DNA of 64,000 nt from Eledone cirrhosa (taxonomy: Eukaryota). Below are positions 5,677-58,986 of the stretch, piece by piece; the first letter of the stretch is position 1; each line of letters opens with the position of its first letter. The DNA lies in NCBI GenBank assembly GCA_964016885.1, contig OZ024755.1, positions 17,174,001-17,238,000 of the forward strand, written 5' to 3'. Below the pieces are notes generated by a model. That model was not told the origin of the DNA. It searched no databases and saw nothing but the letters and a program-made list of their open reading frames with translations. The translations under genes were made by a program, and so were the position numbers.

Positions 5677-5859
5677 GCGGTGGATTGGCAGTATCGGTAG
5701 AGAGTCGGAGCCATGCTTTCCAGCATAGTTATGTCCCTTTACGGTCTGAGTTCAAATCCCGCCGAGGTTTACTTTGCCTTTCATCCTTACGGGGGTCGAT
5801 AAAATAAAGTACCAGTAATGCACTGGGTAATTGTTGGCCTTGTGCCTAAAGTAGAAACA
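5677..5859 (+). mobile_element. tRNA-derived SINE (family A), full length, 18-bp TSD
   Basis: A-box-like TGGCAGTATCGG, B-box GTTCAAATCC, core GCCTTTCATCCTTACGGGG..TCGATAAAATAAAGTACCAG; TSD ATTATGATTAGTTTAAAT at 5659-5676 and 5860-5877. Confidence 0.92.
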
Positions 5860-6148
5860 ATTATGATTAGTTTAAATATTATATCATAATCAGTTTAAAT
5901 ACTAAATGCTTTTGCAATGAAATTTAAAAATTCTTATTCTTTCCATTTAAAAAACAAATAACTCTTTTCTTGATCTACTTACAAATTTTGTCGAATTTTA
6001 TAGATAATAAATGTAATAATAGTTTTCGCTAATATCTTTGTTGCTACTTACAACATCTGTAATCCTTTTAATACCAAACTGCCTAAAATAGATTCTGGTT
6101 TTATGATTTAAATCTGTTTCATTTAAAATATTTATATTTATCTAACTA

Positions 6149-6330
6149 GTGGATTGGCAGTATCGGTAGAGGGTCGGACGCCATGCTTTGAAGCATAGTT
6201 ATGTCCCTTTACGATCTGAGTTCAAATCATGCCGAGGTTGACTTTGCCTTTCATCCTTACGGGGTCGATAAAATAAAGTACCAATAATGCACTGGGTAAT
6301 TGCTGGCCTTGTGCCTAAAGTAGAAGCAAT
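6149..6330 (+). mobile_element. SINE family A copy inserted in a TTAA-MITE remnant
   Basis: Near-identical to 5677-5859; flanks match the MITE body seen at about 7862-8110. Confidence 0.88.
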
Positions 6331-6906
6331 TATGATTTTATGTAAGAACATTTGTTAAATTAGTTCCAAATACCAGCATTAATATCAAAAATTATATTAT
6401 TAAGTTCTTCCAAATTCTTGATGGGAAGACAAGCAAATACTGAGGCTTGTCTGGCTGCTGTCAAGATCTCAGGCATCATCAGACCCTGTACAGCAAAAGT
6501 TCTCTGTAAAATCAGAATGTCGGTAGCTCATCTGAGAAAAGTGCCCCATGAGGTGGAGGGGCTGTTGTAGTGGGTGTCACTGGCCATTGTCTGTGGAAAT
6601 GTCTTTGCAGTTTTGTCTGCAAGATACAGCCAAAACACCACCCTGACCTTGGTATAGAGTCTGTCACCATCTCCCTATCTCCCTTGCCTAATAGTCCTTG
6701 CTCTTTTCTTCCTCTAGTTATTAAGAAGAGTTGAAATTAATGCATGTAAGATTTCACTGCTCTAGCATTACTCCTTCATAGTCAGCCTATGAAAATTTCA
6801 GCCTACCTTATAATACGTGTAAGATTTCACAGCTTTAGCATCACTCCTTCATAGTCAGCCTACCCATTGTACTATCACATTCCTAGATACAATTCTACCA
6901 TGACTA

Positions 6907-12555: not shown

Positions 12556-13056
12556 AAAGGTAAACATAAATAACAACACAGCTGAAAAGGTGTTTGCAAT
12601 AATTCTGCCACTATTCAGCAGAATAAAATACGTAATTTAGGAGTTGTTTTGGCAAATAATTTGAGATTGAAGCAATTACGCAATTAAAGTGTCATTTTAG
12701 CCATCATCATCATCATCATCATCATCGTTTAACATCCGCTTTCCCTGCTAACAAGGGTTGGGCAAGTTAGCAACAGACCAAATCAGTATTCAAGTGGAGC
12801 TAATGACCACATAGATGGGCCAAGGGCTTGCATCCTGCTTATGTATGTTCCCACACTCTACTGAATGTTCAAATGAACCAAAGGGGCCCACATCTCACAT
12901 ATGATCCTGTGCTTTACTGAGTCCATTTTATTATGGCACCAGTACTAGGGAGGTTGTCATGTCTTTGACAACACTGAAGTGTTTTCCTGACCTTTGTTTG
13001 GCAGGTTTTTATAGCTGGATACCCTTCCTATCACCAGCCATTTGACACCCATTAAA

Positions 13057-13240
13057 ATAATTGTTTCTACTTTTGGCACAAGGCCAGCTAGCAATTATTC
13101 CAGTGGTACTTTATTTTATCGACCCCGTAAGGATGAAAGGCAAAGTTAACCTCGGCGGGATTTGAACTCGGACCATAAAGGGCTGTAACTCTTTGCTGCA
13201 AAGCATGGTGTCCGACCCTCTACCGATACTGCCAATCCAC
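13057..13240 (-). mobile_element. SINE family A copy (reverse); other reverse copies at about 8640-8830, 8850-9020, 24520-24660, 58068-58283
   Basis: Reverse complement of the family A sequence, ending GCCAATCCAC. Confidence 0.88.
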
Positions 13241-13541
13241 AAACACCAAACCTGTTATATATCACTTTCCCTTTATTTCAGGTTGTCAAAATTTGTATAA
13301 GACTTCTGTAACATCTTCATTAACATAAATATACTAGTAATGTCAGTGACCAGGTTTCAAAGAGTGTGATGAAAAATGTTGGCTCTACAAAATAAATGAT
13401 AAACTAATATTGTGTATTTTCTTGAATGGTTAAATGATTTTTTTTCAACAATGTAATTGCTGAAATATGTAATTCAATGTAAAATAAAATAAACAAAAAC
13501 AACCTACCTTTTCTCATTATTATTTCTAATGTTTCTATCAG

Positions 13542-15543: not shown

Positions 15544-16171
15544 GTAAGAGAAATTTATTTTTTAACTATCAAAGATGATGATGTTGATTGAACTTATTCA
15601 TATTTAATCATTATCATTATCAACTTCATTTTATGTCCAATTTCCATGCTGATATTTGTCGAAGGAATTGTCAGAGTTTGAGTCGATTCTTATTTGGAAT
15701 TAATGTTATCAAAGACACTCACCCATACCATGTTTTACTTGGTTTCTATTGCTAGATGCCCATCCTAATACCAACAACTTCAAAGAGTGTAGTGATTGCA
15801 TTTTATCATGACATGAGCACTATGGAGGTTGTTAGGCCCATAAAAAAAATAAAAGCATACTCTCAACATTAAATTGTCTCTATTTACTTGCCAGCCAATT
15901 TTCAGAGTGTGATGAGTGCATTTTATTGTGGCACCAGCACTAGGGAAGTTGTCAGGTCCTCTGAAAGATTAGAGTCCTCTAAACCCTACATTGTCTTCAT
16001 TTATTTGCCAGCTATTTTGCAGAGTCTACTGGGTACATTTTATCATGACACCAGCGCTAGTAAAGCTGCCTTGGATGCCACAAGAAATTATTTTATTAAA
16101 TCATTCAGCTGTGCTTCATGTTATAGATGATTAATATAATTCTTCTAAAATGTGTCACTATATAGATAAAG

Positions 16172-16282
16172 ATATTGATTCAAATTAGGTGGCACAGGAC
16201 AAAGACAATGGAAAAACAGACAGTCCCATTTCCTGCTGTCCATCTTTCCATTGTTTTATCCTTTGTCTTTGACCTTTGCGCC
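16172..16282. mobile_element. Small degenerate inverted-repeat element (MITE-like)
   Basis: ATTCAAATTAGGTGGCACAGGACAAAGACA versus TGTCTTTGACCTTTGCGCCCCTTAATTTGGAT. Confidence 0.55.
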
Positions 16283-16396
16283 CCTTAATTTGGATTCATA
16301 TTCTAAAGACTTAGTCATGCAGGATTTTTTTGAAATCAATCATATAATAGAGATATAGGTATGGATATATGTATATGTATGTGTGTACTTTTTCAG

Positions 16397-16561
16397 GACT
16401 GTTGCCGTAAGTGGAAAACATTTGTGGCCGACCATAAGAAACATGAAATGCATTATGAAGAATGTGTTGCCTGGGCAAAAGGTTTACAAGAGAAAGTTGA
16501 AAAGTGCAAAGACACAAGAGGAAATGAAGCAATGATTCAAGAGAAAATCAAAAGTATCCAG
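16397..16561 (+). CDS. Nesprin-like exon 5 (165 nt, phase 0/0)
   Basis: tttttcag|GACTGT ... ATCCAG|gtataa; DCCRKWKTFVADHKKHEMHYEECVAWAKG...EKIKSIQ. Confidence 0.92.
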
Positions 16562-16714
16562 GTATAATAAAAGCAAATATTTCTGTTTTCCATAAATATA
16601 TTTTATATCTTGTTATATCCTGTTTATTTATGAATTGAGAGGGCATATAGTCTTCAGATTTTCATTTAACAAACAACATGTGTAACCTGAAAACATCTTT
16701 ATTATTATTTGTAT

Positions 16715-17122
16715 TTGTAGAGTTGTTAGAGTGTCGGGCAAATGCTTAGCAGTATTTGTTCATTTTTTTACATTCTGAGTTCAAATACCGCTCAGATTAG
16801 CTTTGCCTTTCATCCTTACAGGGTCGATAAAATAAAGTACCAGTAATGCACTGGGGTTGATTTAATACCTTATTTTACTAAAAAATAGAATACAATAAAA
16901 TAAAGTACCAATAAAACACTGGGTCAATTTAAACAACCTCACCTTCCTCAAAATTGTTGGCCTTGTGTCTAAATGAGAAACCATAATACGGCCCTTTCTA
17001 TTCTGAGTTCAATTCCCGCTGAGGTCAACTTTGTCTTTCAACCTTACAGGGTCGATAAAATAAAGTACCAGTAATGCACTGGGTAATTTGCTGGCCTTGT
17101 GCCAAAAGTAGAAACAATTATT
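16715..17122 (+). mobile_element. Cluster of tandem partial family A SINEs just upstream of exon 6
   Basis: AAAATAAAGTACCA occurs three times; two B-box-like and two tail segments. Confidence 0.82.
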
Positions 17123-17168
17123 TTTAATACTGTGAATATTTACTGTCATTCTTTTCTTTATCACTCAG

Positions 17169-17495
17169 GTACTCATGGCTGAAAGAGATGAAGGTCTTCA
17201 TAAACTCCAGGTAGCTATGGAGAGTCTAAAGCTAGTTTTACCAAACACATCAATTTTAGGCTGCCAGAAGCTGCATAAGAACCTGCAATCCTTACAAACT
17301 GAATATGACAATCTCTCATCTGAAATGAGCAACATATGCACCAATCTAGAAGGTTCTCTATCTCACTGGACACTATTCCACAATGAACTTGACCACATGA
17401 AACAGTGGCTTACTGATACTGAAGCACAGCTGGAAACAGAATCTCACTTGCAGACAAGTTTCTCAGAAAAGAAACTTACTCTTGAGCGTGCCATG
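17169..17495 (+). CDS. Nesprin-like exon 6 (327 nt, phase 0/0)
   Basis: cactcag|GTACTC ... GCCATG|gtttgt; VLMAERDEGLHKLQ...PNTSILG...KQWLTDTE...LERAM. Confidence 0.92.
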
Positions 17496-18470
17496 GTTTG
17501 TATCAAACTTTTTCTTCCTCTATTATATTTTGTTGTTTATTTACCTTTATTTTTCTTTCTATTTGTCTGTGTATTTGTTCTATTTTTATACAATATAGTA
17601 TTATATACGTTTATAAATGTTTATATGTATGAATGTGAATGTATGTATATGTGTGTGTGTATTAGCATCTCTACTAATTCAACAAGACAGAAATTGTTGC
17701 TGTTTTTAGAATCATGCATCTCTTGTACTATATATAAAAGAAAGTCACTAATATATACATATGTATGTATGTATGTATGTATATATATATACATACATAA
17801 ACAGACACATATACATATTTATATATACACATACATATATACATGCTAGCGTGGAAGATGGATGTTAAACGATGATGATGATATATATTTACATACATAA
17901 TAAATAAGAGAGATGGTTTTATTCATATATCTTCATTTTATTCGTTATATATATTTCGAAGATGACATATATATATCTATATCAAGTAAGAATATTTTCG
18001 AAACAGCGAGTGGGTTTGAAATTATTAGAAATGTAAGCTATCGCCGTATTTTGACTAAAGAAATTAAAGAAATTATTTAGCCTGATAGTGGGGTTAAGAA
18101 CTCTCTGAGAAATGGAAAAAGATGAGTATTGACGTATATATATATACATACACAGACACATATATTTATATATACACATACATATATACATGCTAGCGTG
18201 GAAGATGGATATTAAACGATGATGATGATATATATTTACATACATAATAAATAAGAGAGATGGTTTTATTCGTATATCTTCATTTTATTTGTTATATATA
18301 TTTCGAAGATGACATATATATATATTGAAGAGTTAAAAAAGATTCAATGATTACATCAAAGAATGAGTTTTATAGTATATTTGGAAGCACTCTACAAGAA
18401 AAATATTTTCCAGAGTTATTAATAATAAAATTCAAATATTAATAAAATAGATGTTCTTGTGATCAATTAA

Positions 18471-18536
18471 ATTTTATTATACATATTTCAGAGGTATGTG
18501 AATCAGGTTCAACAGTACGTCCTCATCAGATAAAAT
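18471..18536 (-). ncRNA. Type I minimal hammerhead ribozyme motif
   Basis: AUUUUAU-CUGAUGA-[GGACGUACUGUUGAA CCUGA UUCACAUACCUCU]-GAAA-UAUGUA-UA-AUAAAAU. Confidence 0.72.
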
Positions 18537-18619
18537 AAAATGATACATGACATACCCTGAGATGTTAGATGGTTAAAATTTAATCATCTAACATCTCAGG
18601 GTATGTCATGTATCATTTT

Positions 18620-18685
18620 ATTTTATCTGATGATGACTTACCGTTGAACCTGATTCACGTACCTCTGAAATATGTATAATAAAAT
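18620..18685 (+). ncRNA. Type I minimal hammerhead motif with a mismatched first pair of stem II (probably impaired)
   Basis: AUUUUAU-CUGAUGA-[UGACUUACCGUUGAA CCUGA UUCACGUACCUCU]-GAAA-UAUGUA-UA-AUAAAAU. Confidence 0.6.
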
Positions 18686-18790
18686 TTAATTGATTATAAG
18701 AACATCTATTTTATTAATATTTGAATTTTAATATATATATACATATATATATAATATATAAGATCAAAAGATGGTTAAAAGAGTTCCATG

Positions 18791-18861
18791 TATTTTATTA
18801 TGCACATTTCAAAAACAAATATCATCATGCGATGACATTTGCGTTTTCATCAGATAAAATA
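18791..18861 (-). ncRNA. Type I minimal hammerhead ribozyme motif
   Basis: Exact reverse complement of 18975-19045. Confidence 0.75.
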
Positions 18862-18974
18862 GGAAGACATGATATGAAGGTTAAAAAACACTTGTGAATA
18901 GTGCAGTTTTAAATCAACATATGTTAAAACTGCACTATTCACAAGTGTTTTTTAACCTTCATATGATGTCTCCC

Positions 18975-19045
18975 TATTTTATCTGATGAAAACGCAAATG
19001 TCATCGCATGATGATATTTGTTTTTGAAATGTGCATAATAAAATA
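18975..19045 (+). ncRNA. Type I minimal hammerhead ribozyme motif, sense to host gene
   Basis: UAUUUUAU-CUGAUGA-[AAACG CAAAUGUCAUC GCAU GAUGAUAUUUG UUUUU]-GAAA-UGUGCA-UA-AUAAAAUA; 8-bp stem I; predicted cut after 19037. Confidence 0.78.
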
Positions 19046-19166
19046 CATGGAACTCTTTTAACCATCTTTTGTTTATATATTATTTATACTCCAGTCCTAC
19101 AAACTATAGAGTGCTACTTATCTGATATCTGCATTGCTTTATTGTACTACAATAAAACTCACCTCC

Positions 19167-19258
<92 letters not shown>

Positions 19259-19751
19259 CATGCTAACACATTGTGTTGTGCATTAAATTAAGTTGCATTA
19301 CAACACAGCATATTGCTTAAGTAATTGAGGGAATTGTAATGGTTGTATTAGTAGTTGATGTAATGAATATTAAAAAGTTTATTTATAGCCTAAGTTAGAT
19401 AAATACCATTCTAGATAGCTTTCTAGGAAAGATATATTTAAATGAGACAGTTAATTGAATTATTGTAAGAATAGAAGATCAGCTTTGAAAACTAAAATAG
19501 AATTTATGTTAAGACTAATGAGCTTATGGTTTATATGTTCTGTTACCTTCATTAAGGTTTCATATACACAACACTAGGACATCTTGTGTGATATTGTAAT
19601 ATATATCTGTACATGTATATATGTATGTGTGTATACATATATATATATATGTATATGTATATATGTACATGTATATATATGTATATATGTACATGTATAT
19701 ATATGTATATATGTATGTATGTATGTATGTATATATATATATGTATGTATG

Positions 19752-19782
<31 letters not shown>

Positions 19783-19887
19783 GTATGTATATGTATGTAT
19801 GTATATATGTATGTATATGTATGTATGTATGTATATATATATATATGTATATATATATATGTATGTATGTATGCATGTATATATATG

Positions 19888-20150
19888 CTACTGGTAACAT
19901 GTATCCCAGTACAACCTGTCCCATGGCCGGGTCGTTGGCGACTAAACTGGCAACCCCACCAAGGATTCTTGGTGAGGAGGGTGACTTTGGACATCCTGCA
20001 GGACTAAAAACAAAACCTGTCAAAGGGCAAAGGAGCTCTTAAGAGTCAATGGCCATCCAAAATCACCGTGAGAGATGACCCCCTTAGCCTTTGTCAAGGC
20101 AGAATTCTAGGAGAAGGAAAACTCTGATATAACACCTGCAACCCTGATGG
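19888..20150 (+). mobile_element. Probable 5' UTR fragment of an RTE-type retroposon
   Basis: GC-richer island after a TA tract containing GGAGAAGGAAAACTCTGAT, which I recall from RTE 5' regions; RTE 3' fragments follow. Confidence 0.5.
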
Positions 20151-20249
20151 TATCCAATGATGTTGACTTGTTCTTCTTTTTGGTAAATATCATCTTGGTT
20201 AAGAGAGTGGGACTGGCTTTGTGCAGTGCCTTTGCTCACTATAAAAGCT

Positions 20250-20480
20250 TCACGGCACAGGCATTGCTTTATATCTGGAGACCTCTCTGCACTTGTCGTC
20301 ACATGGAATCATGGGCCCAGCACTGTGTCAATAATTGTCACAAGTGTAGTGTTTGTACCAGAGTTCTCAAGTCGCTGGCTGGACTAAAAAGTCACACTCG
20401 TTCAGCGCATCGGTAGGGGTTCTCCTACATGGATATAAAGTAGTGGCCGTACTCGATAACGAGTTGGCAGCCACCACCAT
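20250..20480 (+). mobile_element. RTE LINE 3' end encoding a C-terminal C2H2 zinc finger
   Basis: HKCSVCTRVLKSLAGLKSHTRSAHR-stop followed by a short-repeat tail. Confidence 0.78.
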
Positions 20481-20574
20481 ATATATATGTATATATATGT
20501 ATGTATATATATATATATGTTTGTATATATATATGTATGTATATATATATATCCACATATATATATATGTAGGG

Positions 20575-20797
20575 GCTCCCAAAGGAGCACTGAGTGCAAT
20601 ATCAACTCTGGATGTCGGCGAGCATGTCCAGCCAACCTCATGGACACACTAGAAGAGGAAGACCAAGGTTAACATATGTTGATGCCCTAAGGACAGACAC
20701 TGGTCTGTTGAAGATGCAGGATATGGCAGCGATAATGAGGGACAGAGACCGCTGGAGAGAACTCGTCCATGGATCTCGGGAATTTTACCCGCCTTAG
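20575..20797 (+). mobile_element. RTE LINE 3' fragment
   Basis: [23 protein letters not shown]...[13 protein letters not shown]. Confidence 0.82.
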
Positions 20798-20848
20798 ATA
20801 GATAGATATATATATATATATATACACATATATATATGTACATATATA

Positions 20849-20881
<33 letters not shown>

Positions 20882-21163
20882 GTGTGCATATATATATGTG
20901 TGTGTTTGTGTATATATATATGTCCACACACATACATACATAGTTATGTTCTTTAACATTTTGAGTTAGCTTTACCTTCCATCCTTACGCCGTTGATAAA
21001 ACAAAGTACCAGTCACGCACTGGGGTCGATTTGATCGACTATCCCCACCCCTTCAAATTGCTGGCCTTGTGCCTATGTAAGAAACCATTATTATATATTT
21101 TTATTCATTATAAAATCAATGAATGATTTCATAATGTTTTTTGTTTGTTTGTTCTTTTGATAG

Positions 21164-21310
21164 CACTTGAAACGGAATATAAGCTCCCAGAAAACTACTG
21201 TTGATAATCTTATGTCAAATAATTCTTATGTCTTGGATGAAAGCCAAGATGTCCGACATCAAACTAATGATATACAGAAAAGATATCAGCACTTGGTGAC
21301 CTCTGTACAG
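21164..21310 (+). CDS. Nesprin-like exon 7 (147 nt, phase 0/0)
   Basis: ttttgatag|CACTTG ... GTACAG|gtaaat; HLKRNISSQKTTVDNL...IQKRYQHLVTSVQ. Confidence 0.9.
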
Positions 21311-21499
21311 GTAAATATCCACAATTTCATTTCTTTTCTTTTGCTTTTCTTTTTACTTTGGTTTCATTCACACATTCGATATCGACTTGCCAGAAATCAA
21401 CTCTGATTCTATTAAAGAAAACCATCCATTTTAAATAGTTCCTATTCAAATTTAAATCTTCTGGCATAATATTTTATGAGAATATTTTGCTAAGTGGTT

Positions 21500-21950
21500 G
21501 TTGCGGTTGTGGTGGTTGTTGTGGTGGTGATGGTGGTGGTTGCAGTGGTGACGGTGGTGTTGTTGCAGTGGTGACGGTGGTGGCTGCAGTGGTTGTGTTG
21601 GTGGTGAGTGTGGTTGTGGTGGTGGTGGAGACGGTGGTGTGGTTGCAGTGGTGACGGTGGTGGCTGCAGTGGTTGTGTTGATGGTGAGTGTGATTGTGGT
21701 GGTTGTTGTGGTGGAGACGGTGGTGTGGTTGCAGTGGTTGTGTTAGTGGTGAGTGTGGTTGTGATTGTGGTGGTTGTTGTGGTGGTGGTGACGGTGGTGA
21801 CGGTGGTGGCTACAGTGGTTGTGTTGGTGGTGAGTGTGGTTGTGATTGTGATGGTTATTGTGGTGGTGGTGACGGTGGTGGTTGCAGTGGTTGTGTTGGT
21901 GGTGAGTGTGGTTGTGGTTGTGGTGGTGGTGGTGGTGGTGTTACAGTTGT
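21500..21950. repeat. Degenerate (GGT/GTT)n trinucleotide tract; similar tracts at 3621-3680, 31590-31910, 54700-54840, 56020-56225
   Basis: Seen directly. Confidence 0.9.
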
Positions 21951-22055
21951 TCTAGTTGTAACTTTCATATAATAAATGTTTTTGTGTGTAAATGTAATGT
22001 GTGTAACCACTCAACTTGTGTTATGATACCAATACCATCTAAATATTGAAATAAT

Positions 22056-30715: not shown

Positions 30716-31391
30716 TATATATATATAATAGCTGCCCACTGTTTATAGTGGAGCAATGTATTGCACATACACACCTTCAGATTTATTGGGTTGCGAATTG
30801 TCTGACATTTAGGCCATTTTCAAGGACTTTAGCAATATAAATTAAGGGATAGAATAACCCTTTGTGTGACTGAGGATATGAAAAGCTCCCTAGTGTTGAT
30901 GCTGCCATAAAATGCACCCAGTACACTTTGTAAAATGATTGGCATCAGGAAAAGCATCCAGCTGTATAAACTAAGCCAAAAACCTATGAGAGCTGTCAGG
31001 AACTCTGAACAAGATCTGACTATAAACTGCATTGATTAACCTGGCCCTAGCCAACATGGAAACTGGATGTATGAAGATGAATTCTGGACTCTGCTCATCA
31101 GAAATATGCCTCTAATCAGTGACAGTTGCCACAGTTTTATACAATGACTTATTAATTCATAACAATTTTCTTTAATCCTATACAAAAAATCTATATGTTT
31201 TTGTCTTCTATCTCACTGCAAATATTTTCATTATAGAATGAAAAAAGAATGAAAAAAGACAGGATGGTCATGCATAAAAGACCAATGATCATATGCTCAA
31301 TTAGCTGACTTGGGGTTAAATAACATCAATGCAAGCTTTATTATAGAAAGATATAAAAAAACATGTAATTATTCACCACTAGCACATCATT

Positions 31392-31580
31392 GGTGGATTG
31401 GCAGTATCGTTAGAGGGTTGGACGCCATGCTTTGCAGCATGGAGTTATAAGCCTTTATGATCTGAGTTCAAATCCTGCCGAGGTTAACTTTGCCTTTCAT
31501 CCTTACGGGGTCGATAAAATAAAGTACCAGTAATACACTAGAATAATTGCTGGCCTTGTGCCAAAAATTAGAAATTATTA
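31392..31580 (+). mobile_element. SINE family A copy; further forward copies or fragments at about 3100-3262, 14468-14560, 20960-21090, 47725-47860
   Basis: Matches family A head, core and tail. Confidence 0.88.
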
Positions 31581-32234
31581 TATTAGTACCACCATCACTA
31601 CTGTGCTGCTATCCACACTACAACACCATCTCTACCACTACAACAATATCGCTACCACTATACTACCATCTCCACCACTGCACCACCATCACCACTATAA
31701 TACCATCTCTACCACTTCACTATGGCAACAACACCATCATCACCACTATACCAATATCTCCACCACTACACTATTACTACACCACCATATCACCATCTCT
31801 ACTACTATACCGCTATCTCTTCCACTATACAACACTACTACAACAACAACACCCCATCACCATCTCCACCACTACAACAACACCACCACCCCATCACCAT
31901 CTCTACACCACTCACTAAACATTCATATCATAAAGATGATAGCAATAATTTTGTGTGAAACCATGATTGAAATCATGTAAAAGAAACAAATCTATTTGAC
32001 CCTTTTGAGACCATATTTCTCAGAAGTATGTATTCTGTCTTTTGTATTAAATTTTAAAATAATCAAGAATAATGAGTGATTTGGTGCAGTAACTAACTTT
32101 CAACTTAATAATAAAAGACAAATATTTAACTACTGAAATCTAATATTATTTTTCATGTAATAATGAGGTTTTAGTCAATGGTTTTGAATTTACATTTGGA
32201 TACTTTAATAGGAATAGTTTTGGGTGGGATTGGG

Positions 32235-35176: not shown

Positions 35177-37029
35177 GTAATTTCTTTTTTATTCTTCTAA
35201 TATTTCTACTAAAACTGTTGTTTTGTCACCTGGGAAACATAAATATTCAAACCCACTATGTGCTGAGGAAACGAGTTTCAAAGAAGATTCAGAAAACTCA
35301 GGTGCAGAAAACAACTGCAACCACAGTCAGCTGCTACAAATTAGCCTGCAAAAATCAGGCAAAGACCCTAAAAGATGGTAAAAATGCTGCCAGTAGCCAG
35401 TTTTTGTATGATTTTTGTATGATTTTTCCACTTGCTTCATCAAGACGTTAATTCCATCCTAAAACAAACTGAAGAACTAAGTGTATTGATATTTTTTATT
35501 CATACAAAAAAGGGTCGAGAGGACTCTTCAGTTATGTCAAGAGAACAGCTTCCTCTCTGGTGCTGGCGCCACAATAAATTGCATACAGTATACTACACTC
35601 TGTAAAGTGATTGGTGATAGGAAGGTTATCCAACCATAGAAAACTTGCAAAATAAAGGGTCAAGAAAACTCTTCAGTTGTATCAAAGATATAACAATCTC
35701 CCTAGTACTGGTGCCAAGATAAAACACACAGCCATTACACTTTGCAAAGTATGGAAACATATATAAGATGTGGTTCTTTGGCCCATTTGAGAGCTCAGTG
35801 GTTCCAGCTAAGTACTGACTAGGTCTGTAGTAACTTGTCCAACTCTTGCTAGCAAGGAAGGGAAAGCAGATGATGATGATATCTAAAACGTGTTTTTGAA
35901 ATATTTTAAGGCTTTTGTTTTATTCAGGGGATAATCTCAAACATAGACCCAAAGCTATAAATTTAGCAGGAATGGTATAGTCAGTTATATCAACCTCAGT
36001 ACCTTACTGATATTTTATTTTATCAATGTCGAAATGATGATAAACAAAGTTGACCTTTGTATGATTTGAACTAAGAATGTGAGGACCCAGAATATATACT
36101 GCAAATCATTTCATCAGATACTCTGACATTCCTGCCAATCCAAAAAAAGGATTTTTCTTCCTTATATGAAATTTGCTGGTTATGTGATTATGATACATGA
36201 AATCTATGTTCATATTTGTCTATCTTATGATGGGAACCTGTACACTTTATTTGCTTCAATATATTTACAACATCCATAATCTTTTCAGATTACTCTGGCT
36301 TCTTATTCAGTATGCTGGAATAGTCAAATATTAATCAGCACTCCTATCTGATTGCTAAGGAACTATTTCTTCTGTATGTTTCTTATCTTTCTTCAGAGAT
36401 TGGAAGAGCGAGCTGCTGTAAACTTACATTTATACATTCTTTGATAAATAACCCCCTTTCCAAACCTCATCTATCATGTCAACTGATTTTACTTTACATA
36501 TCATCATTTAGTATGCTATTCCCAAAGTAGGGTCAAATGAAACATGGTAAGCCACTCAATCCTTTTAGCATTTGATGTTACTCGAAGCATATAATCATTG
36601 TATTTGTTGTTGCCAAAAATATTCAGGTTTTTTTCAATTTAACCCCTTCATTACCATATTTCTAATAAAAGACACTGCCTATAATTTTGAAATCAATTTG
36701 AAAATAATCAAACATTTGAAGGGATTTAGTAGTATGACTAATTTTCTTATTATTAAGATAGGTGTTTAGAAAATAGATTAACAGACATTCTTACATAAAA
36801 TTATAATGAAAAGTTTGTAGATAAATATAAAGACTTTAAAATTAATGGTTTTGTATCATAGAATTAGGGGCAGTTTCAAGCAGTTTCGTTTCAAAAGGGT
36901 TTACAGGACTTTTACAAGAAGTTGCTATTTAAATCCTTCACTGAACCTAATAAACAACCTACTTTGCATGGTTCAGTTTCTTGTGTGCATGTGTGTGTGT
37001 TGGGGGGGGGGGGGGGGTTGGACCTCCTT

Positions 37030-37470
37030 CAGTTCTGATGATTTAAAAAAATATGTCTTTGGAGTAACATTACTCGATAGAGTGCATAGCCCAGAGATCA
37101 GAGAGTCAGTCCAGGTAGAGCCTCTACTTCTCCAAATTGAGAGTTCTGATATTATGGGTATGTGGTCAGAATATCTCAAAAGAGAATTGCTGTATAGATT
37201 TTATAGGCAAAACCAACTGGCAAGAGACCCAGGGATAGACCTCTGGGTAAGATGGTTAAATAACATCCATCAGCTTATCTCGTCTCACTTGGGGTGCCCA
37301 GTCAGATCAATTGAAGATGATTGCTTCAAACAGGGCCTGCTTGAGGACTCTGTTTGAGGACTCTGCTCCAACAATCCTCTCCCAAGAATAATTCAACAAA
37401 GATGATGATGATGATGGAGATGATGATGATGACGACGATGACAAAGATGGTGATGACGATGATAATGATG
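37030..37470 (+). mobile_element. Decayed RTE LINE 3' end with (GAT)n tail; other RTE 3' ends at about 44976-45475 (+), 46600-46790 (-), 49110-49300 (+), 63010-63185 (-)
   Basis: GVTLLDRVHSPEIRESVQVEPLLLQIE; RQLRFAGHCWR at about 45002; 45280-45470 and 63010-63185 are inverted homologues. Confidence 0.72.
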
Positions 37471-38980: not shown

Positions 38981-39168
38981 TGAAGGCGGAGGATTGGCAG
39001 TATCGGTGGAGGGTCGGACACCATGCTTTCCAGCATAGTTACGTCCCTTTACGATCTGAGTTCAAATCCTGCCGAGGTTGACTTTGCCTTTCATCCTTAC
39101 GGGGTCGATAAAATAAAGTACCAGTAATGCACTGGGTAATTGCTGGCCTTGTGCCTAAAGTAGAAACA
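38981..39168 (+). mobile_element. SINE family A, full length, 17-bp TSD
   Basis: TSD ATTATGATAATTGTAAT at 38964-38980 and 39169-39185. Confidence 0.92.
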
Positions 39169-39788
39169 ATTATGATAATTGTAATAAATCATTAAAATAG
39201 AGGTGATGATGATGGTGATGGCGATTATGATGATGAAGGTGATGATAATATAAACTGAATATGTCTGAATTTCCTGAAGTAGAACATCTATATATTAAAA
39301 AAAAAATCATTACTATTTTTATTTATTTATCAATTTGTTTCAGCATTTATTTCAATAGTCAGCTATTTTGATTTTTAGCCAAATATTAGATTGTGATTAC
39401 AATGAAGTGTCAAATGTTTCCTTTTAAAACTGACATTAAAATTGATCAGTAATGCTTACAAATATGTTCATGTGTAATATATTGATTTCTCACTTAGGCA
39501 CAAAGCCACAAATCTATCATGTTAAGGAAACAGTTTGTATGAGTTTCATTATCCTTTCTCAGATATTCATTTTATCAAATCCACAGACAGTCACTTACTG
39601 ATGAATGTACACTTCCACTCTCTGAAAATAGATCTATGATTTTAAACAAATGCTTACATTATCATCATCATCATTATTTTCATCATCATCATCATCATCA
39701 TCATCGTTTAACGTCCATGTTCCACGCCTGCATGGGTTTGGACGGGGGTTTTCCCACTTGAGGCAAGAGTGGTTGTCTTGCTCGCATA

Positions 39789-40350
39789 GGACTGTCTGGC
39801 GGGTTTTCTACAGCTGGATGCCCTTCCTAACACCAACCACATTTACAGTGTGGGGCTGGGAGGTTTTTACCGTGTTGCCTACACGGCCACATTACAGCGT
39901 GGACTGTCTGGCGGGTTTTCTACAGCTGGATGCCCTTCCTAACACCAACCACATTTACAGTGTGGGACTGGGAGGTTTTTACCACGTTGCCTACACAGCC
40001 ACATTACAGCGTGGACTGTCTGGCGGGTTTTCTACAGCTGGATGCCCTTCCTAACCAACCACATTTACAGTGTGGACTGGGAGGTTTTTACCGTGTTACC
40101 TACATGGCCACATTACAGCGTGGACTGTCTGGCGGGTTTTCTACAGCTGGATGCCCTTCCTAACACCAACCACATTTACAGTGTGGGACTGGGAGGTTTT
40201 TACCGTGTTACCTACACGGCCACATTACAGCGTGGACTGTCTGGCGGGTTTTCTACAGCTGGATGCCCTTCCTAACACCAACCATATTTACAGTGTGGGG
40301 CTGGGAGGTTTTTACCGTGTTGCCTACACGGCCACATTACAGCGTGGACC
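39789..40350. repeat. Tandem repeat, 5 x about 112 bp, inside a reverse-oriented (GAT)n-tailed retroposon (about 39660-40400)
   Basis: GGAC unit starts at 39789, 39901, 40013, 40122, 40234, 40346; contains CAGCTGGATGCCCTTCCTAAC shared with dispersed copies. Confidence 0.95.
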
Positions 40351-40550
40351 GTGTGTTTTTTGTCATGACACCTACACGATCTCATTTGTTTCGGCCTGGA
40401 TGTTGTGGCACCAACATAACTTTGCATTGAAAGGGGCGGTGTGGATGGGGTGGGGGTGGTGGGACGGGGTGTATTTTGTTAGAGATGCCTACTGACTGTA
40501 GTAGGTTATTTTATATATACATATATAATTACACATATATATTATCGTTT

Positions 40551-45104: not shown

Positions 45105-45824
45105 GATATATTAGTCTCAGACTAAATTAACATATCAACACTGAAAGTATACATACGCTATATACATATATACATAAATTGGCATCAATGTATTACAAAT
45201 GAAAGTTTATATGGAGACTTGCCCAAGATAACAACTACAATTGCTCAAAACTGGATACAATTTGTAGGACATTGCGGGAGAAATAAGCAGGAAGTTATAC
45301 ACAAGCAACTATTGTGGGAACTAACTCAGGTGTAGGTACTTGAATATTCATCGATCAAATCTCAGACAATACAAACCTCTGTAAGGAGCAGTTGCTAGGA
45401 GCAATGGAAAATTGTGAATTCTGGAGAGACTTTGTCAGGAATGTTTGACTGTGGTCGCAATAATGATGAATTATTAATTGATATTAACTATATCAACATT
45501 TTAGTTATTTGCTGACAGAAAATAATTATTAAAAACTAAGTTATGTAATGATTGCAGTATATTGGGGATGCAACATGGCCAGATGGTTAAGATGGTTGCT
45601 TTACAATCATGAGGAGTAGGGATGAGTTTGATGCCAATGACTGCGTATCTTGGGCAAGGTTCTTTTTACTATAACCTCAAGTGAACCCAAACTTTGTGAG
45701 TAGAATTAGTTAGCTGGATATTGTGTGGAAACTCATCAGATGAACTGTATTGTATTTATTTTTCAACAAGCCAGCCTTTTCACACACTGTGCCATGTTGA
45801 ATCATCATTATTGTTTAACCCTTT

Positions 45825-46012
45825 TAAGGAGGTGGATTGGCAGTATCGGTAGAGGGTCAGACGCCATGCTTTGACGCATAGAGTTACGGCCCTTGCCATT
45901 CTGAGTTCAAATCCCGCCAAGGTTAACTTTGCCTTTCATCCTTACGGGGTCGATAAAATAAAGTACCAGTAATGCACTGGTAATTACTGGCCTTGTGCCA
46001 AAAGTAGAAACA
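45825..46012 (+). mobile_element. SINE family A, full length, 18-bp TSD
   Basis: TSD ATTATTGTTTAACCCTTT at 45807-45824 and 46013-46030. Confidence 0.92.
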
Positions 46013-46186
46013 ATTATTGTTTAACCCTTTAGAATTTAAACTGGCCATATCTGGCCAAATTTATTCTTTATACTTAGTGGTGGAATTTCCACAGAGTCAG
46101 CTAGTATAATGTAAACGCTTTATATATTTCAATTCCTTTGTAATGTTTCAAGTATGATGTTTTGTTTTTTTTGTTTTGTTTTCCAG

Positions 46187-51187: not shown

Positions 51188-51884
51188 GTGGTAAAAAATT
51201 GGGAGGTTATATCCATAGTAAGTAGAGCACTCAGTCCAATGGACAAGTTCAGTAAAGAGTTTGGTTTGCTAATTTGTTGTGAAATTAACTCTCTCTCTCC
51301 CTCACTTTATATATAGTATCATCATCATCATCATAATCAATGTTTTTATGTCTTCTTTTCCATTCTGGCATGGGTTGGACAGGATAGTTTCACACAAAAT
51401 TCTACAGCCAGATACCCTCTCTTCATGCCAATCCTTTTTATTACAACATACAGTGGTACTATGTACCTATTTCTAAAAGCCACATATGTGTATGTGGAGA
51501 CCATACTAATTGAAAAACTTCATATACAGGATATGACCTGTGCATTCCTGTTATTGAGTAGCTCTTATGCTTCCATATATTTCTATATTTCATATACATT
51601 TTTCTGTGCGCCTTTATCTTTACCTTCAACGTCCAAACTCCTCTCCTAGTTCCACACCCACACTCATTCTTATCTCTTTCCCTTCTACTATCCTTTTACA
51701 TATCTACTTTTCTCTCTCCTCTTTCTATTTTTTATATGAATCTTACATATGTATTATATCTTTTTTTTACTTCATTTTACTATTTTTATAGACATATATC
51801 TTTTGTATTATATACTTATTTATTTAGATAAATAGATATTTTATATATATATATATATATATACACATACATATATATATATAT

Positions 51885-57778: not shown

Positions 57779-58986
57779 GGTACGTAAGAGCCCTGGTGGG
57801 GATGTGAAACCAGGTGACAGATTAGGTCCACCACTTAAACCAGACTAACAAAAACAAAGGAAAAACATGAACACAATAAAACTAAGGGAAGCTATTTAAT
57901 AGGACTCTAAATTGAAAGAATGTTTATGTAGTCATTTGTTAGAGATCTGCCTATTTTTATGCAACAAGTCTCGACAAGTATTACAAACCTGCCATCTATA
58001 TTTCTCAGTATTACACAACTATCAGAGTATTTTTTGATACAGTCAAATGTTTCTACTGAGTCAATAAGGGTTTCTGATTTAGGCACAAGGCCAAACATTT
58101 TGGTAAAGGGTAAAGTTGATTAAATCAACCCCCAGTGCATTACTGGTACTTTATTTTATCTTCCCCGTAAGAATGAAAGGCGAGGCTAAACTCAGTGGGA
58201 TTTGAACTCAGAACGTAAAGGGCCATAACTCTATGCTGCAAAGCATGTTGTCCGACGTTCCACTGATACTGCCAATCCACCACTCTTTACTGAGTAAAGA
58301 ATAATTAGATAAAATTCCTAATTCTTTGGCAGACATTTTATTTGTAGTAGTTACTCTTTTCTACTATTGTTTCAAACCAACTCTTCACCTGAATATTAGT
58401 TTCTACACATAAAATATGACCATCCCTGTTTCTCCATCCTATGTCTCTGTTGCTACTTTATTTTTCTAGTTTTTCACCTTTATGTCATTGACAATACTTC
58501 AGATGGACAAATTTACTGTGCAAACAATTTTTACAGTGTAACCGGTTAATCAAGTTCTCACCTAATTCTGTCAACCCTTAAAACTGTTTTCATCATCCCA
58601 GTCTTCACCATTTTATCAATTATTCTCTGTTTAAATTCCTTTCTTGTGCTCTTTGTTTCCATCACAAACATATACACCCACAAACACAAATACACAAAAC
58701 TAAATTCTCAAATAAAATTAAACATACACACACCCACGAATGATTTTTTTTTTTTTTTTAAATTTGTAAGTGACATTTACAAAGACAGATTTTAAACAAT
58801 TAAAAAAATAGAAATATATATTCACTCATATACATCGCTACACACGTACAAACACCCATGTATAGTAGTAAGTATTGTAAACACTGTCACTCTGTCACAT
58901 TAATACATTAAAATATAAAACATAGTCAGTCATACACACACATAAACTCTGCGGTTCACAGATAGAACTCTCTCTCTCATTTTCAG

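Follow-up and report, generated by a model that had tools for sequence, protein, structure and literature searches.

Insertions of endonuclease-positive (EN+) Penelope-like retroelements (PLEs) comprise an inverted 5'-truncated copy and a tail on one side only (PMC8557442, Fig. 2 legend; PMC3846280), and PLEs of the Hydra clade target (TA)n tracts and carry hammerhead ribozymes (PMC8557442). In minimal PLE hammerheads helix III/loop 3 is absent or very small, helix I measures 4-5 bp and helix II 7-8 bp, and opposite-strand hammerhead pairs lying 100-700 bp apart in Schistosoma were ascribed in 2014 to truncated PLEs (PMC4209133). The purified protein of the Poseidon element cuts and extends both strands, starting at two internal sites that bracket the tail, and the Poseidon ribozyme needed the protein (PMC11167929). 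Two neighbouring ribozyme-bearing palindromes, P1 and P2, are present in the 64,000-nucleotide stretch of Eledone cirrhosa DNA analysed here (the window; assembly GCA_964016885.1, contig OZ024755.1, positions 17,174,001 to 17,238,000 of the forward strand). They are likely two separate insertions of EN+ PLEs, with the Hydra clade as the probable source, each consisting of head-to-head truncated arms and a one-sided tail.

The two inverted repeats occupy positions 18417-18577/18579-18739 (P1; 161 nt, 94% identity between the arms) and 18748-18912/18924-19088 (P2; 165 nt, 95%) of the window. An earlier note on this DNA, made from the letters alone, had reported back-to-back near-perfect palindromes, which is correct as regards the arms, but it overlooked the one-sided tails at 18325-18421 and 19089-19169. 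Other copies were examined in seven of 23 public sequencing runs, sets X1, X21, X5 and X8 being compared with positions 18300-19200 and sets X2, X22 and X23 with 18300-18600; reads of less than 80% identity to the locus were excluded. For the longer interval, the variants considered comprise the best 40 of 213 substitution rows, with 15 of the 64 joints and 24 of the 393 loose ends; for the shorter one they comprise the best 40 of 94 substitution rows, every one of the 12 joints and 18 of the 274 loose ends. Since the raw reads are reduced-representation, the read counts given below are not copy counts, and contig depth is likewise no count. The insertions are composed as follows:

18314-18325, no strand: (TA)n at the long (tail) end of the P1 insertion, with a TA-like continuation in 339 (X22) and 366 (X23) reads
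18325-18421, minus strand: P1 tail, joined at high read depth to the left arm and missing from the right arm
18386-18416, minus strand: P1 tail hairpin, with an ACTC...GAGT base, a 2-nt bulge, then GCT; begins ~6 nt past the short end
18422-18587, minus strand: P1 left arm, the 5'-truncated 3' region of family 1 (inverted repeat and run-on reads)
18569-18587, no strand: P1 head-to-head junction, a 19-nt quasi-palindrome (16/19 positions) with the recurrent inversion point 18586
18585-18735, plus strand: P1 right arm, with the short end and without a tail (inverted repeat)
18729-18752, no strand: TA-rich tract separating P1 from P2
18748-18923, minus strand: P2 left arm, the 5'-truncated 3' region of family 2, with the short end (inverted repeat and run-on reads)
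18918-18923, no strand: P2 junction, located at the hexamer CATATG, which is self-complementary; 5 nt that directly follow it are missing from the right arm
18918-19088, plus strand: P2 right arm (inverted repeat; 173 X21 reads exit into (TA)n behind 19088)
19088-19115, plus strand: P2 tail hairpin, ACTC...GAGT with a 2-nt bulge, then GCT; begins at the short end
19089-19169, plus strand: P2 tail, on the right arm only (high depth at 19075-19167)
19170-19251, no strand: (TA)n at the long end of P2

P1 and P2 represent fragments of two distinct repeat families, each of high copy number, which have in common only the ribozyme skeleton and short words in the tail. A total of 5101 contig records (X1) and 7780 reads (X21) fell on 18300-19200, and this high copy number bears out the mobility that had been proposed. 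Pieces of the P1 and P2 families also occur in organism B; seven short AT-rich pieces from organism E (X8) were judged to be no evidence. About half of the reads at the P1 centre (18586) run on past it into consistent further sequence (355 in X21, 388 in X22 and 244 in X23, with depths at 18577 of 719, 741 and 537), and 264 X21 reads likewise continue past the P2 centre (18923) into consistent further sequence. Nine of the 12 P1 joints in other copies connect opposite strands, at nine different pairs of places, and four of these nine use 18586, as here. Thirteen of the 15 P2 joints considered go from 18916-18924 to places in 18977-19139, a clustering that may partly reflect the reference ending there; two of the records have a single intervening letter. 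The single palindromic family of the earlier note is not supported: the families are two, their arms are truncated pieces of longer elements, the inversion point varies among copies and the tail is one-sided.

Both insertions end in TA repeats, as was seen when they were inspected for a target-site duplication. In the reads, the long end of P1 at 18325 (339 and 366 reads) and its short end at 18422 (167 reads) both reach (TA)n, as does the short end of P2 at 19088 (173 X21 reads), while the long end of P2 at 19169 meets (TA)n in the window; the suggested insertion into TA tracts is thus upheld at the locus and in other copies. The arms differ at 6 of 140 body positions in P1 and at 2 of 147 in P2, which suggests that P2 is the younger of the two and a separate event. 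Rare family alleles are common to both arms at 18804/19032, where 99% of the X1 depth carries the other base, and at 18432/18724 and 18470/18686, so that each palindrome appears to derive from one source. In comparison with the inverted pseudo-long terminal repeat (pLTR) layout of EN+ PLEs, the locus shares the head-to-head arms, the palindrome at the junction, the one-sided tail, the two 3' ends and the AT-rich target; it differs in having longer tails and arms of only ~150-170 nt, and because both arms are so short the whole insertion forms a hairpin. A 193-bp direct repeat (95%; 17784-17976 and 18135-18323), which begins within TA-rich DNA and stops right at the P1 tail, has a 158-bp segment between its copies; a long duplication of the target or a tandem duplication arising locally could account for it.

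The four hammerhead motifs reported earlier, two per strand, are present, with type I order and intact cores in all four:

18471-18536, minus strand: hammerhead P1-left, with stem I 18536-18530/18477-18471, core 18529-18523, stem II 18522-18490, GAAA 18489-18486 and stem III 18486-18479; predicted cut after 18478
18620-18685, plus strand: hammerhead P1-right, host-sense; predicted cut after 18678; compared with the left arm, 2/7 positions at the base of stem II are broken
18791-18861, minus strand: hammerhead P2-left; predicted cut after 18799; descriptor match
18975-19045, plus strand: hammerhead P2-right, host-sense; predicted cut after 19037; descriptor match

From the centre outwards, each arm contains stem I, CUGAUGA, stem II, GAAA and stem III, then UA followed by the second strand of stem I. 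Stem I comprises 7 bp in P1 and 8 bp in P2, stem II spans 33 and 36 nt, respectively, and stem III is a self-complementary sequence of 8 nt (AUAUGUAU or AUGUGCAU). As judged from the sequence, cleavage would take place after 18678 and 19037 on the plus strand and after 18478 and 18799 on the minus strand, that is, 51-56 nt ahead of the short end and 132-153 nt ahead of the long end. A descriptor search, as advised in the earlier note, matched three of the four motifs and nothing else in the 64-kb window; P1-right was missed owing to a U.U at the foot of stem II, where a further pair is broken as well. When the window was subjected to 300 dinucleotide shuffles in 1-kb blocks, both strands together gave no strict descriptor matches and a mean of 0.017 loose ones. 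The four motifs amount to only two independent ones, because the arms are copies of each other. A search of 16000-22000 with Rfam (E<=10) returned no hammerhead family among 120 matches, which are microRNA-type hairpins under their gathering scores, and a ribozyme pattern scan of metagenomes gave 0 matches. Elsewhere in the window, the plus strand at 728-838 contains CUGAAGA and a later GAAA that are enclosed, along with three inner hairpins, by a closing stem of 7 bp (-24 kcal/mol), some 220 nt ahead of a TA repeat; this motif is hammerhead-like, and its register is not clean type I.

The stem II sequences of P1 and P2 are unlike, yet both pair, and core and stem I are the same, as had been described. 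In P2-right, stem II comprises 15 pairs with one C.U mismatch and a GCAU loop, and the P2 stem folds much more strongly than its shuffles (z = -4.9). Position 4 of stem II is mismatched in all four arms (C.C or C.U). The P1 arms do differ by the paired U-A/C-G change of the earlier note (18514/18497 versus 18642/18659), although this provides weak evidence because both halves are CpG-type transitions. The base that would give G-C at the foot of P1 stem II occurs in 287 of 1247 X21 reads. A length of 33-36 nt justifies calling stem II unusually long; the label 'minimal', in contrast, fails in the sense of PMC4209133, given the 8-nt stem III insert, the stem I of 7-8 bp and this same stem II. 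Type I order, the palindromic 15.2-16.2 region, the logic of dimer action and a larger helix II are shared with the minimal metazoan PLE hammerheads, whereas the longer stem I, the 8-nt stem III, a stem II of about twice the length and the loss of G10.1-C11.1 set the locus apart from them (PMC4209133).

Across copies of the P1 family, the 47-nt minimal ribozyme contains 1 of 37 variable positions, 6.6 being expected (P = 0.004; best 40 of 94 rows), and this single variant keeps a G.U pair. The 19 nt of distal stem II contain 6 of the 37 (P = 0.04; same rows). Excess conservation, named in the earlier note as a check, is accordingly present in the minimal ribozyme of P1 but not significant in the catalytic core taken by itself (P = 0.13). 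In the P2 family, 0 variants fell in a core among the best 40 of 213 rows, and four variants shown at paired positions of stem II each leave a standard or G.U pair (read by hand). The majority allele of P2 turns stem III into a perfect palindrome. A 13-nt deletion is carried by 20-24% of P1-family reads in each of three read sets (270/1115, 232/997 and 171/876) and is also found in organism B; the loss is confined to the distal stem, so that the 7-position base is now closed by a loop of 6 nt. With its base conserved and its distal part variable and deletable, the 'long stem II' is in effect loop 2 carrying a variable extension.

The tails of P1 and P2 share two collinear exact words of 9 and 10 nt, a result equalled in 2 of 3000 shuffles, and both contain the bulged hairpin, to which the majority allele G at 19106 adds a pair in P2. 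In 180 and 169 reads only the distal P1 tail (18325-18372) is matched and other sequence follows, and contig depth is about tenfold higher at 18325-18372 than at 18377-18409; the diverging reads imply that another family has the distal P1 tail in common. A scan with the two tail words yielded four loci (L001-L004), which were judged to be chance matches: a TA tract or the 5' strand of the hairpin was present in none of the four, and a loose core-like word in one. Two further places in the window recall the tails. The minus strand of 17977-18135, between two short TA runs, has a weak ACTC...GAGT hairpin (-2.8 kcal/mol) 7 nt from one run and may be the tail-only stump of a third family. At 51226-51260, also on the minus strand, the tail pattern ACTC...GAGTGCT occurs without a descriptor hammerhead.

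Among described systems, the Hydra clade is closest to the locus. The two have in common the (TA)n targets, a canonical type I hammerhead near the 3' end and a tail hairpin: inspection by eye shows a comparable bulged hairpin ~38-47 nt beyond the cut in three of the six Hydra consensus sequences of File S7 of PMC8557442 (Hydra-2_Amil, Hydra-2_Ajap and Hydra-1_Crog), the other three stopping short of that place. Its upper stem in Hydra-1_Crog has the same four pairs as the majority form of P2, again by eye. In addition, U.U or another weak base pair at the foot of stem II, as in P1-right, is common in the clade (PMC8557442). The differences are the C.Y mismatch at stem II position 4, tails of 80-100 nt and the fact that no protein was seen here. 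The stem II region also differs, with 33-36 nt compared with 12-26 nt in 25 Hydra families by our count from File S2 (PMC8557442), although this length has precedent, since the rows for the non-Hydra PLE-X1 elements of spike mosses in the same file are longer still. Elements of the Naiad clade show the same (TA)n preference without a canonical hammerhead, whereas the order at the locus is canonical. Three short arm motifs gave 0 matches in the supplement of PMC8557442, in which line breaks can hide matches. The Hydra clade is defined by its protein (motifs RWK, DKT and CxCX5C, with CCHH lacking) and by RT phylogeny. The assignment to Hydra is inferred from target, ribozyme and hairpin, no protein being linked, while the Penelope link drawn in the earlier note is borne out more broadly by the inverted truncated layout, the one-sided tail, the (TA)n target and the position of the hammerhead near the 3' end.

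On this reading, the GIY-YIG endonuclease of the element would cut both strands of a (TA)n tract, and its reverse transcriptase (RT) would use both DNA ends as primers on one RNA, with a start point on either side of the tail, of which the inner lies at the foot of the bulged tail hairpin. Both complementary DNAs (cDNAs) would end prematurely, in many cases at a favoured site 58-70 nt upstream of the ribozyme core, and would be joined through a short palindrome, namely the 19-nt quasi-palindrome in P1 and CATATG in P2. The hammerhead would be the normal 3' ribozyme of such elements, cutting precursor or tandem transcripts, most efficiently when two copies pair through the self-complementary stem III. 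As noted above, stem II owes its extra length to a variable and deletable addition to loop 2, set on a conserved base of 7 positions that includes a C.Y mismatch.

Several observations weigh against the assignment or against parts of it. Neither family could be linked to an RT or GIY-YIG gene, the loose ends showing 30 letters; among the 72 window frames of at least 100 aa no protein with RT and GIY-YIG was recognised by eye, the earlier note having likewise reported no RT, and seven frames were scanned with Pfam. The tails of ~97 and 81 nt exceed the published 30-40 bp, the whole-tail local alignment of P1 and P2 is borderline (109/2000 shuffles) and the P2 tail, in the sequence of the locus, folds no better than shuffles. 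The likeness to the Hydra hairpin was assessed by eye, and the hairpin is no published clade criterion. Stem III has 8 nt here and 9-10 nt in the Hydra rows of File S2 (PMC8557442). As regards the ribozyme, the G10.1-C11.1 pair, which is usual though not universal, is absent, the pairs at the foot of stem II being G.U, U.U, A-U and A-U, and P1 stem II folds no better than shuffles. In the P1 catalytic core, 0 of 13 is not significant as conservation (P = 0.13; best 40 of 94 rows), the P1 variants are subfamily differences and not independent events, and the counts leave out reads below 80% identity. In single arms with their native context, stem I was predicted to form in one of four only, P2-left (0.7-0.8), and the other three may be weak or dead anyway. 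Finally, ribozyme cutting was not needed for insertion in vitro (PMC11167929), and head-to-head junctions have been put down to self-priming (PMC3846280), which the palindromic junctions of both P1 and P2 would also fit.

The ribozymes at the locus are predicted to be silent. Transcripts of either strand were computed to fold at -208 to -244 kcal/mol with a stem I probability of 0.0, and an RNA would behave in this way because, from either side, the antisense arm is transcribed first and zips the molecule into a hairpin of ~160 bp. The RNA 18620-19045, which had been suggested for a cleavage test, has a predicted energy of -212 kcal/mol and a stem I probability of 0.0 for both ribozymes; it would be uninformative if uncut, since it includes the antisense P2 arm and its stem I is sequestered. 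Dimer cleavage by PLE hammerheads is reportedly the subject of a paper of 2017. The proposal that stem III is suited to dimers agrees with its 8-nt self-complementarity and with the modelled cofold of two P2 arms, in which an intermolecular stem III forms, while the cofold of two P1 arms did not show this state. The predicted stem III duplex of P1 with P2 (-3.4 kcal/mol) is more stable than that of P1 with P1 (-2.2).

If the Penelope origin is accepted, the parents may themselves have been short non-coding elements, or retrozyme-like monomers of more than ~290 nt, that borrowed a Hydra-type enzyme; we give this somewhat less than an even chance. It is in line with the very high copy number and with the visible 250-260 nt, in which there is no long frame (the longest stop-free sense frame has 47 codons) and to which the earlier description as non-coding applies. 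The 180 and 169 reads that diverge after the distal P1 tail would likewise indicate different bodies with common tail signals. However, the 3' untranslated regions (UTRs) of coding elements are non-coding as well, most reads of the P1 tail end enter (TA)n, and there is no tandem at the locus. The non-LTR retrozymes (PMC7229834; bioRxiv 10.64898/2026.07.22.740005) resemble the locus in the type I hammerhead, the low GC content and the proposed dependence on PLEs, but differ in their tandem units, which were not found here, there being no P1 back-joint among the 12 joints. One of them, HHR_Amex2 of the axolotl, has a 2-bp helix III with a tetraloop and U.U at the base of helix II, according to the same sources. 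A circular P1 monomer of ~277 nt, considered because the run-on letters resemble the end of the tail over 6 nt, was rejected, since 0 of 12 joints in three read sets return from 18586 to the tail.

A second possibility concerns the arms alone: the first cDNA or an antisense template may have folded back, primed itself at the palindromic junction and copied itself, as favoured for such junctions in PMC3846280. Both junctions are indeed palindromic and the arms have rare alleles in common; nevertheless this origin is rather unlikely, because other copies join 18586 to 18464, 18496 or 18537, many P2 copies join the centre to tail-only pieces, and self-copying does not account for the different ends of the two arms, one short and one long. 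Copying from both DNA ends, as set out above, is preferred.

A bolder combination is speculative and, in our judgement, improbable: both families would be short non-coding ribozyme RNAs that use a Hydra-type enzyme by means of the common tail hairpin; copying would proceed from both DNA ends and halt where the RNA itself begins, with its 5' end ~60-70 nt ahead of the core. If this were true, the head-to-head product would mute its own ribozyme in read-through transcripts, which would allow thousands of copies to persist in introns as 150-bp double-stranded RNA, and the identical stem I of the unlike families would permit cross-family dimers.

A single palindromic mobile family, the reading of the earlier note, understood here as a mobile unit of fixed length resembling a miniature inverted-repeat transposable element (MITE), has very little probability left: near-perfect palindromes in TA-rich DNA with identical stem I and core would fit it, but the arms run on, the junctions vary, the tail is asymmetric in place of the fixed symmetrical terminal inverted repeats of a MITE, and P1 and P2 are alike only in the ribozyme skeleton and the tail words. 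As regards a role in the host, the nearest upstream feature is the following:

17175-17492, plus strand: nearest upstream exon-like frame, with spectrin repeats, nesprin-1-like (Pfam Spectrin_SYNE1, E 5e-07, under the curated cut-off)

Spectrin_SYNE1 was matched in all five exon-like plus-strand frames tested (E 1e-07 to 8e-03, all under the Pfam curated cut-off), and the insertions are situated ~0.9 kb behind one of the spectrin-repeat frames; P1 and P2 therefore likely sit in an intron of a spectrin-repeat host gene, as far as the sequence indicates. When one host exon was compared with longer proteins, 0 of 301 candidates passed. Retention of the ribozymes or hairpins for cutting or regulating the nesprin-like pre-mRNA is extremely unlikely, for although two motifs lie on the host-sense strand of the putative intron, these copies are the more damaged ones (stem II of P1-right; a rare allele at 18965 of P2-right and the loss of its stem I in the fold) and are predicted to be sequestered in long hairpins.

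No published description of these families or of the long-stem-II variant was found in the literature excluding subscription papers. The layout and the ribozyme type are already known for PLEs, and the locus is likely a pair of decayed insertions that is unusual mainly in its long stem II. Ribozyme counts in such genomes are probably too low, because Rfam misses long-stem hammerheads, which exceed the core spacer of 7-17 nt (PMC8557442). One family offers natural stem II variants of 20 nt and 33 nt, a ready pair for asking what the extension does, and concrete predictions for the unsettled start and end of Penelope copying follow from the fixed position of both ends, from the hairpin at the inner one and from the favoured stop.

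The window as a whole is AT-rich and animal-like, with a GC content of 26-41% per 2 kb. Two frames, at 36821-37357 and 20111-20416, recall by eye the C-terminal parts of non-LTR retrotransposons, of which they are presumably fragments; Pfam gave no match for the former and a weak C2H2 finger for the latter. A tandem array with a period of ~112 nt, noticed through its repeating translations, occupies 39630-40400. A dispersed family of 150-190-bp repeats, similar in size to short interspersed nuclear elements (SINEs), is represented by many copies on both strands, including those at 5680-5864, 6149-6333, 13053-13243, 31390-31585, 38988-39179, 45807-46018 and 58131-58305.

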